DNA of 59,887 bases, filler included, from Diploschistes diacapsis (GCA_023645945.1; 5 parts of 5 records of this genome joined end to end with filler, not necessarily neighbours in it), one strand, 5' to 3'; positions 13,922 through 18,334 are shown, counted from the whole stretch's first letter. The notes: generated from the letters alone by a model not told the origin. Translations and numbers: made by a program.

Positions 13922-14460
13922 CAACAACGGCTGTCAAAAACATGGCCAGTTGTTCAGTTGCCCGGGATGTACACCACCACGCTTCTACAAGTGTAACCAC
14001 ATGATCAATGACACCTGCGGAGAATCAAGTAGGATGCGGTGCGAGGTGCAGCCCGCATTATTAGGCACAGAGTATATGTAGCGCTATTGACAGACACGAC
14101 CACATACACATCTCAAATTCGCCAAGCCCAATTTACTTTCAAGGTTTGTCCTTTGTTCATCCCCCCCTAGTCCTAGGAACTTGGACAAAAACCTAGTTTC
14201 CAACTACTCCTATAGTAGACTAGCCCAGTCTCATAGACGACGACTCTTTTCGTCGGAAACTCTGCTGAGCGATCCCTACATCAATCAAGATCCAAGAACC
14301 GGTTTGAACCGAGGGCCACCACCAAGGGGGCCGGCCGAGCTTGTTCAGCAGAGCTCCCTCTTCGTCCATGGAATTATGAAAAACTACATGCTAGCTTGCT
14401 GGCCGGAATCCAAGACACATGCTGCAAATGGAGAGCAACATGACTCGTAATGCCATGGCA

Positions 14461-15956
14461 TCATCGCTTGATAATGGTAACTTTTTCGAAATGTCAGCCC
14501 CTGGCACGCAACTGGAATACGTCCAATAACCTACTAATGTCTTCGTCCGCAAGCTCATGCGCGAGACCCACTCGCTGGGGTTGGTGCTTCACGGAGCGGC
14601 CGTACACAATGGCCTGCCTAAACTGGTCCACGATGGTCTTATGGATTGCATTGCACTTGCACCAGTCAGCAGATTTGCTAACCCGGGCGGATCATCACGG
14701 GTCAGGGCAGGAACTGACGAAATCCTCTACGGTACAGGCGCTCTTCCTCAGCACGACCGGGGCAGAGTAATCCGGGGTCTTGCCCTTCGGCTTCGTGTAG
14801 ATGCGTCGCAACGAAAGCTTCTCCCACATCTGCTCCAGGAGCTCGTCGATATTCCAGCCGTGCTCGGAGCTGATCGGGCAGGCGTTTGGGATTCTGTAGA
14901 GCAGGTCGAGCTCCTCGATGGAGATGGAGTCGATCTTGTTCAGCGCGTAGATGACTGGGATGTAGCTTCTGCTTTTCGCTTCTATGATGTCTATTAGGTC
15001 GTCAATCGTCGCGTCGCATCGTATGGCAATGTCGGCAGATGCTATGCGATACTCGCCCATCACAGCTTTGATTTCCTAGCTTGGTAAGCATGAAGTGCTC
15101 CTGCGCTCCAGGGCGCAAGCTCACATCGTGCGATATGTGGGTTAGCGGTACTGTGTTGGTGATGGCAATGCCTCCCTTGTCCTTTTTCCTGAAGACAATG
15201 TTCGGCGGCTCCTTGTTGATGCGAATGCCAAAGCCTTCCAGCTCCGATTCAATGACCCTCTTGTCAGTGAGAGGTTTATTGACATCCAACACAATGAAGA
15301 TCAGATGGCAAGTCTTCGCCACGGCAATGACCTGACGACCTCTTCCCTTCCCGTCCTTTGCTCCCTCGATGATTCCCGGAAGGTCCAGTATCTGTATGTT
15401 GGCGCCATTGTACTGCACCTGGCCCGGCACGGTCGTTAAAGTCGTGAATTCATATGCCGCAGCCTCCGAGTGTTGGCCTGTCAGTTTGCTCATCAAGGTC
15501 GACTTTCCGACCGAGGGAAATCCGATGAAGCCGATGCTGGCCACCCCCGTCCTCGCAACATCGAAGCCGACACCTCCTCCGCCACCGCTCGACGAGGGGG
15601 TCAAGAGCTCCCTCTTGAGCTTGGCGAGTTTTGCTTTCAGCTGGCCTTGCAACTCTCAGCGCTTGGGGATCAAAAGGCAGCATACTTGGACCCAACCTAG
15701 ATGAAAAGACGTGGCTTTATTGTGCAAGCCGTGAGTATTCAGAAAGGCAGTCCTTGAGCATCACGTATCTTCTGTTTCGCCGTCAGCTTTGAGTCACGGG
15801 CCTGGTTCTCGGGTCAACGGACTTGGGTCTTCGCCATCTCATCCTCGATAGCTTTTATCTACGTGAAAACCAGCGTGGTCAACCACAAGCTTCCGTGTCT
15901 GGAGCGCAGTGCAGTCCCGTCCAACTAAGACTTACCTTATCCGCTGTTGTCGCCAT
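14461..15956 (-). CDS. RBG1: Developmentally regulated GTP-binding protein DRG1/Rbg1
   Basis: Spliced product [43 protein letters not shown]..., with G1 [29 protein letters not shown] and a TGS domain ending EDIITIIKR*. Seven introns, including a 3-nt microexon (15769-15771) and an AT-AC intron (15722-15768). Confidence 0.96.
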
Positions 15957-16033
15957 CTTGAGAAATGGTATCCGATTTGTATGATTAAAGTAGTTTTCGT
16001 GTTTAAAATTGATGTGTGCTAATATTCACATAA

Positions 16034-16501
16034 CAGCGGGGTGCCAAAAAGTATTTGGGTTCTCCCCCATTTCTCACGAAAATCGATAAACTTTATACCC
16101 AATTATCTTCCTTAAAATATGCCCAATTCGAAAATTCAAAACATCATAAAGAGCTTGAAAGCATTACGCATACAGGAGACCTTTTTTTCGAATTTTCTCG
16201 AATTTTCTCGAGTGCCTAACGTGTGGGGGGGGGGAACATTCGAGAAAAACCAGTCCCCACCAAAAATCGCGGTTACAAAGTTGGTGCTGGCTGTTTTCGT
16301 CGACGACTTAGGGCTCCCAGAAACATTCAATAAAATTGCGGAAAAATGAGAAGGAAGTTGAAAAGCTTTAAAAAGCTTCCGGGGGGTTTTTTTGTCCAAT
16401 TTTTAAAAACCTTTTCGCAGAGATATAAGGGCTAGGAAAGCGACTTTTTCGGTGAGAATTTTGGTGGTGGGGAGGACCTAATTACTTTTTTGCCTATATA
16501 G
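16034..16501. mobile_element. Degenerate Tc1/mariner-type (mimp-like) fold-back MITE
   Basis: The left end CAGCGGGGTGCCAAAAAGTATTTGGG resembles impala/mimp-type TIRs. The reverse complement of 16441-16494 aligns with gaps to 16043-16085 (GC.AAAAAGTA.TT.GGT..TCCCC...TTCTCA.CGAAAA..TCG). TA follows the right end. Confidence 0.6.
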
Positions 16502-16978
16502 TACTTTACTAGTTGATTAAAACCTAATTTGTAAAGGTTTCTGAATTCCTAAAATAAATCATATTATTACGTTGAATTAAAGTGGTTTTTAAATTATACT
16601 AATATGTTTTTGTTAAGATATAAAAATCCCTACAAAATCTTTGTTAAAGAAAATCAAAATTGTTTATTCTAATAACAATATAAGTCGCGCTACGTTTTCT
16701 TATCATTAAATAGAAATGATAAGTTTTTATTTCAATTTTATATTAATCGCTTAAGCTTACCAATCGGTCTTGAATCAATTTGTGACTATGCAACATGAAT
16801 CACCACCCGTTACTATCACAAATCACGAACTCTTATCAATGTCAAGATAAAGATGCTGTCTCAAGCTCAGATTGAATAATTTCACCAGCATATTTATCGC
16901 TCTACCTACTTCATACTAGGTCACCTCGATTCGATTTGTACGTTAAGCATATCAGGCTTCTCCTTTACCTTCAGCAAC

Positions 16979-17793
16979 ATGCAGCCATCGCCATCTACCA
17001 GCAGTACCTTTCTGGGCGTGAAGACGACCTTCGATAGCTTAGTCGAGGCGCTGAGTCAGGCTTTGGGTCCGTCCTCCGGACTAGATTCAGAGGGTGTCGA
17101 TATTCGGGCTCTTGAAGATCTCATGAAGAACTATGCTTCTGATGAGTCGGCCTGGTCTAAATATGCCTTCAAGGATCCGAGCAGAGGCTACACTAGGAAC
17201 CTGGTCGATAAAGGCAATGGGAAAAGTAACCTTGTAGGAACCTATTTTCTTATGTGGTCTCTGCTCTGATTGTATCAGCTCGTCGTCGTCTGGACTCCTG
17301 CGAAAGGTTCGCCGGTTCACGACCATGCGAACGCGCACTGTATTATGAAGGTGAGTGTCTCAAGCACGTCTATTGCAAGGTCTAACAAGATCGAGATACT
17401 TCGAGGTCGTCTCACGGAGACACGATACGACTGGCCAGGCGTTGAGGCTGCTCAGCTGCCAATAAAGCAAGAAACCACGTTTCAAGAGAACGACGTGACG
17501 TACATGTCAGATACAGTAAGCTCACAAAGGAAGAAACAGTTCGACTCGAGCATTGACATAGTGCTCAGCTAGGCCTCCACAAGATCTGGAATCCTGATCC
17601 TGAAAACTTCGCGGTTTCATTGCACTGTCAGTCCATCAAGAAGCTTCGTATCGAGAGCGTGATACTGATAAGCCCAGTATACACACCGCCTAATGCGGCC
17701 AAGTTTGGTTGTAGCATCTTCGATGAATCCACGGGCAAAGCGAGCCACATCTCGCAGACCAATTTCTTTTCGCAGTTTGGCTACAAGGTGTGA
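16979..17793 (+). CDS. CDO1: Cysteine dioxygenase
   Basis: Five exons give [35 protein letters not shown] (HxH), LGLHKI and SLHLYTPP; stop TGA at 17791-17793. Confidence 0.95.
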
Positions 17794-18334
17794 GAGCAGT
17801 AGTGACCTGCAGCCTCGTATTGCTCGTTATGCTCGTTATATAGAGCGAGAATGTCGTCTCCGACAGGTTAAAAAATGACTCAGAAAAAGTTCAGCTGAGA
17901 TGAAGATAGCTCAATGACTGAAGCACAGTAGAGCTGAAGTGTTTTGTTTATCTTAATTGAGTATGAAAGTAGTAAACGCAAGATGAACAAAATGGTTCGA
18001 GATGCCTGGCGGGGGCGCCGGACTTGCAAATCGGCTAAGATTTAGGGGCGTTGTTTTGAGCACATGTAGAAGCTTGACGTCGATACATGCTGTAAAGCGT
18101 GTTCTGTTCACATTCTTGATGATTGCGCTTATTCACGTTCTTTAGCCTTGCTGTTGAATTGTTCCCGAAGGCAATTCTATAGACTAATGGTTTGGGCCAA
18201 GTTTTAAGCAAGCTCTCTGCTATGCCGCTCGTTACCCTCCAACCTTGCCGGCCTAGGGTTCGGCCCATTTGTCTAACCTAAGCAGTTTCGATGCTGCCAT
18301 ACTCTTAATCGAAAGCGTTCGTGCTCCGAAGAGC

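Follow-up and report, generated by a model that had tools for sequence, protein, structure and literature searches.

The 47-nt segment at 15768-15722 on the minus strand of the window (the whole stretch of DNA analysed, 59,887 nt with filler) is probably a real U2-type AT-AC spliceosomal intron of the RBG1/DRG1 gene, converted from GT...AG at an old intron position and removed to give a normal Rbg1 product. As the DNA reads, the conserved Rbg1 protein can only be encoded if this AT...AC intron is excised beside an exon of 3 nt. An in-frame canonical intron at 15764-15715 overlaps the segment and gives a different protein; neither this alternative nor the 3-nt micro-exon (15771-15769) appeared in the earlier, sequence-only reading of this DNA.

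Structure of the RBG1 gene

The window contains a complete RBG1/DRG1 gene on the minus strand. When its exons are joined, a CDS of 1104 nt is obtained, which has no internal stop codon and encodes 367 amino acids. The gene consists of eight exons and seven introns; six of the introns are short GT-AG introns of 49-77 nt, and the seventh is the AT...AC segment. The features are listed below in the direction of transcription.

15936..15956, minus strand: exon 1; 7 codons including the start codon, with an N-terminus that fits the homologues
15859..15935, minus strand: intron 1; 77 nt, GTAAGT...CGTAG, at K7/I8; the same position is occupied in the relative L076
15823..15858, minus strand: exon 2; 36 nt, last codons T18 and Q19
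15772..15822, minus strand: intron 2; 51 nt, GTCCGT...AACAG, with a branch-like CTGAC, at Q19/K20
15769..15771, minus strand: exon 3, the predicted micro-exon AAG (K20); 3 nt, between intron 2 and the AT-AC intron
15722..15768, minus strand: intron 3, the putative AT-AC intron; 47 nt, ATACGT...TTGCAC, at K20/N21, phase 0
15731..15737, minus strand: branch-like TACTCAC, read from the sequence; candidate branch A at 15732
15715..15764, minus strand: rival canonical intron; 50 nt, GTGATG...AATAAAG, in frame; implies a 7-nt exon
15697..15721, minus strand: exon 4; 25 nt, N21 K22 A23 T S F H L and the first base of G29
15646..15696, minus strand: intron 4; 51 nt, GTTGGG...GCAAG, phase 1 in G29; position common to many relatives
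15125..15645, minus strand: exon 5 (G domain); up to 94% identity to relatives
15076..15124, minus strand: intron 5; 49 nt, GT-AG, at 202/203
14719..15075, minus strand: exon 6
14656..14718, minus strand: intron 6; 63 nt, GT-AG, at 321/322
14535..14655, minus strand: exon 7 (part of the TGS domain)
14481..14534, minus strand: intron 7; 54 nt, GT-AG, phase 1, residue 361
14461..14480, minus strand: exon 8 and stop codon

Exon 5 was up to 93% identical to named Pezizomycotina proteins (rbg1 or ribosome-interacting GTPase 1), including those of the lichen fungi Xylographa, Gyalolechia, Bacidia, Lobaria, and Ramalina, and up to 94% identical to metagenome loci. The proteins matched by exon 5 carry the domains PF01926, PF16897, and PF02824. 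An intronless relative, L015, matched yeast Rbg1 (4a9a, 7rr5) with an E-value of 2.7e-186, compared with 2.4e-117 for Rbg2 (7nrc). By these matches, the window gene is identified as a DRG1/Rbg1 GTPase (G domain with the S5D2L insert, and TGS), and as an orthologue of Rbg1 rather than of Rbg2.

Predicted excision of the AT...AC segment and canonical alternatives

The minus strand reads AAG/ATACGT...TTGCAC/AAT AAA GCC ACG at the segment, an exact match to the sequence and coordinates that the sequence-only reading had given for 15722..15768. That reading had also claimed that removal of exactly these 47 nt restores a DRG-family motif and that their retention breaks the reading frame, and both statements agree with our translations: excision joins AAG to AAT AAA GCC and restores the 12-residue motif in a 367-aa product without an internal stop, and a premature stop codon is met when the segment is kept. 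A slide of the junction by one base (TA..CA) gives the identical protein. Because intron 2 (15822-15772) ends directly before AAG, these three bases would form an exon of their own.

We then tried every way of removing one, two, or three GT/GC-AG introns (35-300 nt each) from the interval 15858 to 15560; in no case was the 12-residue motif obtained. The earlier claim that the same product cannot be had from any GT/GC-AG pair is thus literally true, but it masks several canonical alternatives that stay in frame, all of them with other products. The most plausible is the 50-nt intron at 15764-15715, which, with introns 2 and 4 removed, gives TQKIPTSFHLG; four bases are added to one exon and seven are taken from the next, the frame is held, and K-I-P-T replaces K-N-K-A-T with the loss of N21, K22, and A23. 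A single 104-nt intron at 15818-15715 would give TQVPTSFHLG. Nested canonical splicing, as in a stwintron, was rejected, as no canonical combination gives the motif; it cannot form the AAG-AAT junction because the bases before AAT are AC and not an AG acceptor. A reaction that spared these two bases would find no AG at this point, and one that took them out would have to stop precisely here.

The end of intron 2 also carries a CAG/AAG tandem acceptor (15769-15774, minus strand). If its second AG were used, the K20 codon would be lost; in combination with the intron at 15764-15715 the product would be TQIPTSFHLG, again in frame.

The intron at 15764-15715 is the basis of an account in which the original splice sites were lost and cryptic ones are now used, namely a GT at positions +5 and +6 of the segment and an AG 7 bases into the old exon, so that the protein made has no K22. 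This account involves GT-AG introns only, and it is the choice that gene predictors would make; its frame is kept by the accident of the +4 and -7 bases. It still requires a micro-exon, in this case of 7 nt, and it leaves unexplained why the segment ends exactly in A and C, a known compensating pair (PMC1557818). The residues that it would remove and the splice sites that it would use are considered in the next two sections.

Conservation of the N-terminal motif

TQ[KR]NK[ANG]T was found in 114 of the 120 best homologues, the other six being truncated or odd N-terminal models, and TQ[KR]NK was encoded in all 78 evaluable metagenome loci. Yeast Rbg1 (4a9a, 7rr5) and Rbg2 (7nrc) both contain QKNKAT. 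Cryptic splicing at 15764-15715 would remove N21, K22, and A23 from a protein family in which the N and the K are present in every homologue that has the region (114/114), in 78/78 loci, and even in yeast Rbg2. K22 of DRG1 is described as the lysine that is hydroxylated by JMJD7 and as lying near the A-site tRNA; a printed DRG1 peptide covering residues 16-40 fixes its numbering (PMC9001643). The residue is placed at the apex of the N-terminal helix-turn-helix (PMC9001643; PMC8629797), and Rbg1 without the helix-turn-helix domain is reported to give no rescue (PMC8629797). It is this hydroxylated apex lysine (PMC9001643) that the cryptic route would lose.

Parts of QKNKAT are missing from the public RBG1 models P0108, P0098, P0089, P0059, and P0058, for example in Gnomoniopsis. 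Small exons or odd introns at the motif may thus have been mis-modelled in other fungi too.

Splice signals of intron 3

Judged by the general fungal donor consensus, the donor ATACGT fits the U2-type consensus from position +2 to position +6; its fifth base is G and its sixth is T. A G at +5 is common to the six GT-AG donors of the gene, but the rival donor GTGATG carries T there. Counted from the candidate branch A at 15732, the AC end of the segment is 10 nt away, and the rival AG end, the first AG downstream of TACTCAC, is 17 nt away. In the six GT-AG introns of the gene, the distance from branch to AG was 9-13 nt by eye, which is weak evidence; a crude motif scan of the whole window gave only 36 branch candidates, whose distances were widely scattered (6-16 nt and more), a range that weakens the argument from distance and that speaks for the cryptic acceptor as well. 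The CTCAC branch deviates from the CTRAC form found in most other introns of the gene. Taking the donor, the lost residues, and the unexplained ends together, we regard exclusive use of the cryptic intron as unlikely.

Removal of intron 3 by the minor spliceosome was considered on the basis of its terminal dinucleotides, the one feature that points to a U12-type intron. The U12 donor ATATCC and the U12 branch box TCCTTAAC are both absent from intron 3, whose donor reads ATACGTGA and whose best look-alike of the branch box matches 6 of 9 bases by eye. The combination that we took to mark a U12-type intron, a donor /ATATCCTT with a branch TCCTTAAC at 10-26 nt from the 3' end, was not found in it, and ATATCCTT occurs 0 times in the window. 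A search for minor snRNAs gave 0 Rfam matches in the 60-kb window, a very weak test at that size. U12 splicing has been reported as missing in Ascomycota and Pezizomycotina (PMC2846911). Intron 3 is almost certainly not of the U12 type.

The sequence-only reading had described ATACGT and TACTCAC as U2-like, and this description holds, with no U12 donor or branch box in the intron. Its further claim, that the major spliceosome handles the intron, is probable and the best-supported reading, given the conserved protein motif, the compensating A...C ends, the TACGT donor, the CTCAC branch, the lack of U12 motifs, and the GT-AG intron of a relative at the same position. Removal of intron 3 by the major (U2-type) spliceosome is most likely on these signals.

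Splicing guided by a structured RNA, or of the Ire1 type, was a further candidate and was rejected. No unusual RNA fold was found at 15700-15830; the predicted fold was less stable than those of shuffled sequences (z +1.6), of which 190 of 200 folded at least as well.

Support from an independent assembly and selection on the gene

Four read sets were compared over 14400-16100. All are contigs that appear DNA-like, without splice joints.

X1: lichen metagenome, which may be the window's source; share of sampled words 1.00
X2: "organism A", from another study; share of sampled words 0.58
X3: rock metagenome; share of sampled words 0.36
X4: "organism B"; share of sampled words 0.10, with no cover over 15654-15824

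X1 showed zero differences over 14400-16100 and is not independent of the window. Record 13 of X2 spans 15575-15957 at a word depth of approximately 82, with six other letters (at 15653, 15661, 15673, 15681, 15746, and 15781) and one gap (an insertion behind 15787). Because all seven differences sit elsewhere, the four end bases of intron 3 (15768, 15767, 15723, and 15722) are unchanged in X2. Record 22 of X3 also spans the site; as three of its nine differences are listed, it was left out of the comparison of intron ends. A separate cluster of three X3 differences, at 14813-14815, was set aside because it belongs to an unrelated contig of 5 kb that matches over a 67-nt piece.

These comparisons bear on the possibility that an ordinary GT-AG intron was misread or misassembled at both ends. 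Non-canonical ends in metagenome assemblies are often errors, and X1, as the possible source, offers no independent control. However, X2 comes from another study and has the identical four end bases, and the error account requires two independent changes, one exactly at each end of the intron. Such a double error is thus very unlikely. The earlier statement that the ends are hard to explain as one sequencing error is borne out by X2, an independent assembly in which AT and AC are both kept.

The seven X2 differences in 15575-15957 are confined to introns 2, 3, and 4; the approximately 156 exonic bases of this interval are free of them. Nine exonic differences between X1 and X2 were listed: eight synonymous changes and one I>V. 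Since X1 and X2 diverge here by only about 1.6%, the fact that AATAAAG and ATAC are unchanged cannot separate exon from intron. The pattern points to purifying selection on the gene wherever the AT...AC ends are shared and speaks against a pseudogene; selection of this kind is equally compatible with cryptic splicing at 15764-15715.

The same data weigh on the idea of a disabled or strongly hypomorphic allele, in which the intron would be mostly retained or mis-spliced, little Rbg1 would be made, and the fungus would rely on Rbg2 or other factors. On its own, either change (to AT-AG or to GT-AC) should severely impair splicing, and yeast RBG1 is reported to be dispensable unless other genes are also removed, as judged from rescue of a triple mutant (PMC8629797). 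Such an allele does not fit well with eight intact exons and six other introns that are normal, with exonic differences of which eight are synonymous and the ninth is conservative in two assemblies that have AT...AC in common, with the confinement of the differences in 15575-15957 to introns, or with the identity of up to 94% between exon 5 and its relatives. We consider it decidedly unlikely.

Outside the gene, at 16053-16100, both X1 and X2 showed an about fourfold rise in summed word depth, and about 35-40 bases there were matched, with loose ends, by several further contigs of X1. A short dispersed repeat probably occupies this interval, which lies directly upstream of RBG1 within an AT-rich stretch (16001-18000, GC 0.41).

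Intron positions in relatives

From 410 confirmed relatives found in a metagenome scan, 80 were compared, and 78 of these were evaluable at K20/N21; L033 and L064 were left out at this position because they have no upstream sequence. The K20/N21 intron was absent from 77 of the 78 loci. The exception, L076, has a 70-nt GT-AG intron (L076:1352-1421) exactly between the K and the N, in phase 0. L076 shares six of the seven intron positions of the window gene (K7/I8, K20/N21, G29 phase 1, 202/203, 321/322, and 361 phase 1), its counterpart of exon 4 is also 25 nt long, and removal of its introns gives a normal N-terminus. Because of the GT-AG intron of L076 at K20/N21, the 47-nt segment can be placed at an inherited intron position, whose ends are GT...AG in at least one relative.

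AT...AC ends were found in 0 of the 78 evaluable loci; they are seen in the window lineage only, where they are kept in X2. The odd ends are therefore without deep conservation, and the conversion from GT-AG to AT-AC appears to be recent. The intron at Q19/K20, which creates the 3-nt exon, was likewise found in 0 of the 78 loci. Other positions are E14/M15 in many loci, E12/A13 in L076, and K22/A23, where L022 and L023 have a GT-AG intron.

In fungi, the first 30 codons of RBG1 thus hold at least six intron positions (K7/I8, E12/A13, E14/M15, Q19/K20, K20/N21, and K22/A23), in addition to G29 phase 1. The second intron of L076 (L076:1273-1327, at E12/A13) has GC-AG ends, GCATGT...CTTAG, and must be removed for a normal N-terminus.

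Introns 3 (15722-15768) and 4 (15646-15696) of the window gene have CTGCCTTT(C)TGA in common, and each has a TTGCA close to its 3' end. An origin of intron 3 as a duplicate of intron 4 was rejected: the best local match covers 11 of 12 bases, with a score that was equalled in about 2% of 300 shuffles, which is not significant for one pair among the 21 compared. The similarity of the two introns is probably due to chance.

Proposed splicing of intron 3

The host would be a lichen- or rock-associated ascomycete in which an intron at the old position K20/N21 had its ends changed from GT...AG to AT...AC. In the proposed mechanism, the otherwise normal donor (A)TACGT would be recognised by U1 and U6, and the CTCAC branch, which lies 10 nt before the 3' end, by U2. 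In the second step, the A of the first base would pair with the C of the last base in place of the usual contact between G and G. Because another GT-AG intron ends 3 nt upstream, introns 2 and 3 are probably removed one after the other, with the 3-nt K20 exon between them. Normal Rbg1 would then be made, with K22 retained at the apex of the helix-turn-helix. The sequence-only reading had proposed that the intron may limit expression of the gene; the one point in favour of this is the reduced efficiency reported for engineered introns with the same pair of changes (PMC1557818). We infer the use of the junction, the acting spliceosome, and the order of removal from DNA.

AT-AC splicing is favoured over the cryptic route by the conserved motif, the function of K22, and the donor, and also by the ends themselves. 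The A and C ends are the known compensating pair, and under cryptic splicing exactly these two bases would be a coincidence; in addition, the canonical alternative deletes N21, K22, and A23. Against the AT-AC reading stand the in-frame canonical intron, which may be used in part or in full, the restriction of the AT...AC ends to one lineage, the deviating CTCAC branch, and the 3-nt exon between two introns of about 50 nt, which is unusual and for which we found no fungal precedent in the literature searched. Functional microexons are described in one report as not previously known from filamentous fungi (PMC11121469).

Both routes might also be used side by side, with the AT-AC intron giving normal Rbg1 and the intron at 15764-15715 giving an in-frame isoform without N21, K22, and A23. 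We give this only a slim chance. If it were so, the choice of splice sites at one 50-nt intron would switch the tip of a GTPase that faces the ribosome and the tRNA, or would throttle its level, and the 3-nt exon and the CAG/AAG tandem acceptor would add further in-frame variants.

Returning to AT-AC splicing as the probable reading, confirmation by RNA would make this a natural and apparently recent conversion from GT-AG to AT-AC at an old intron position, in a host expected to have the major spliceosome only. The compensation between first and last base known from yeast genetics would then have occurred in the wild, with the ancestral GT-AG state still present in L076, and the 3-nt exon would join the few micro-exons known in filamentous fungi. 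The in-frame cryptic route could have tided the gene over while the intron ends changed in two steps. For annotation, gene predictors limited to GT/GC-AG introns would mis-model RBG1 here and lose the conserved lysine. Our understanding of the splicing mechanism itself would be unchanged by this intron.

Comparison with known introns

U2-type AT-AC introns are known to exist. Sheth et al. (2006) counted 24 of them in five species, and two have been shown to depend on the major snRNAs (PMC1557818). AT-AC introns are reported to be rarer in fungal annotations than in those of plants and animals (PMC7072748). Within the limited literature that we searched, no AT-AC intron had been reported for RBG1/DRG1. 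It is probable that the RBG1 intron is a case of this established rare class, so that its kind is already known and the RBG1 case is new. The features that stand out are the apparently recent conversion, the GT-AG state still found in L076, and the adjoining 3-nt exon.

The closest counterparts in animals are the type II AT-AC introns of SCN4A, SCN5A, and TAF2, which, like the RBG1 intron, combine AT...AC ends with a U2-type donor, have no U12 boxes, and are very rare (PMC1557818). The animal introns have been shown by cDNA, two of them are snRNA-dependent, and they are kept between distant species (PMC1557818), whereas the RBG1 intron is known from DNA alone. The RBG1 intron also differs in being 47 nt long, fungal, confined to one narrow lineage, and directly adjacent to a 3-nt exon. 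U12-type AT-AC introns have the terminal dinucleotides alone in common with it and differ in both donor and branch.

Stwintrons of Pezizomycotina resemble introns 2 and 3 of RBG1 in that two reactions take place within about 100 nt, probably in sequence (PMC9024468, PMC12403724, PMC8469720). In a stwintron, however, a splice signal of the outer canonical intron is split by the internal intron, with no exon in between, whereas RBG1 would keep 3 nt as an exon. AT-AC introns with U2 signals have been hypothesised in xylanase genes of filamentous fungi (PMC1557818); these putative introns are like the RBG1 case in belonging to filamentous ascomycetes, in being short, and in having U2-like signals. 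Engineered introns of yeast and human carry the same compensating pair of ends as the RBG1 intron: a change of the first base from G to A was rescued, less efficiently, by a change of the last base from G to C (PMC1557818). Those introns are laboratory mutants with reduced efficiency (PMC1557818), whereas the pair in RBG1 occurs in nature and is fixed in at least two of the genomes sampled.
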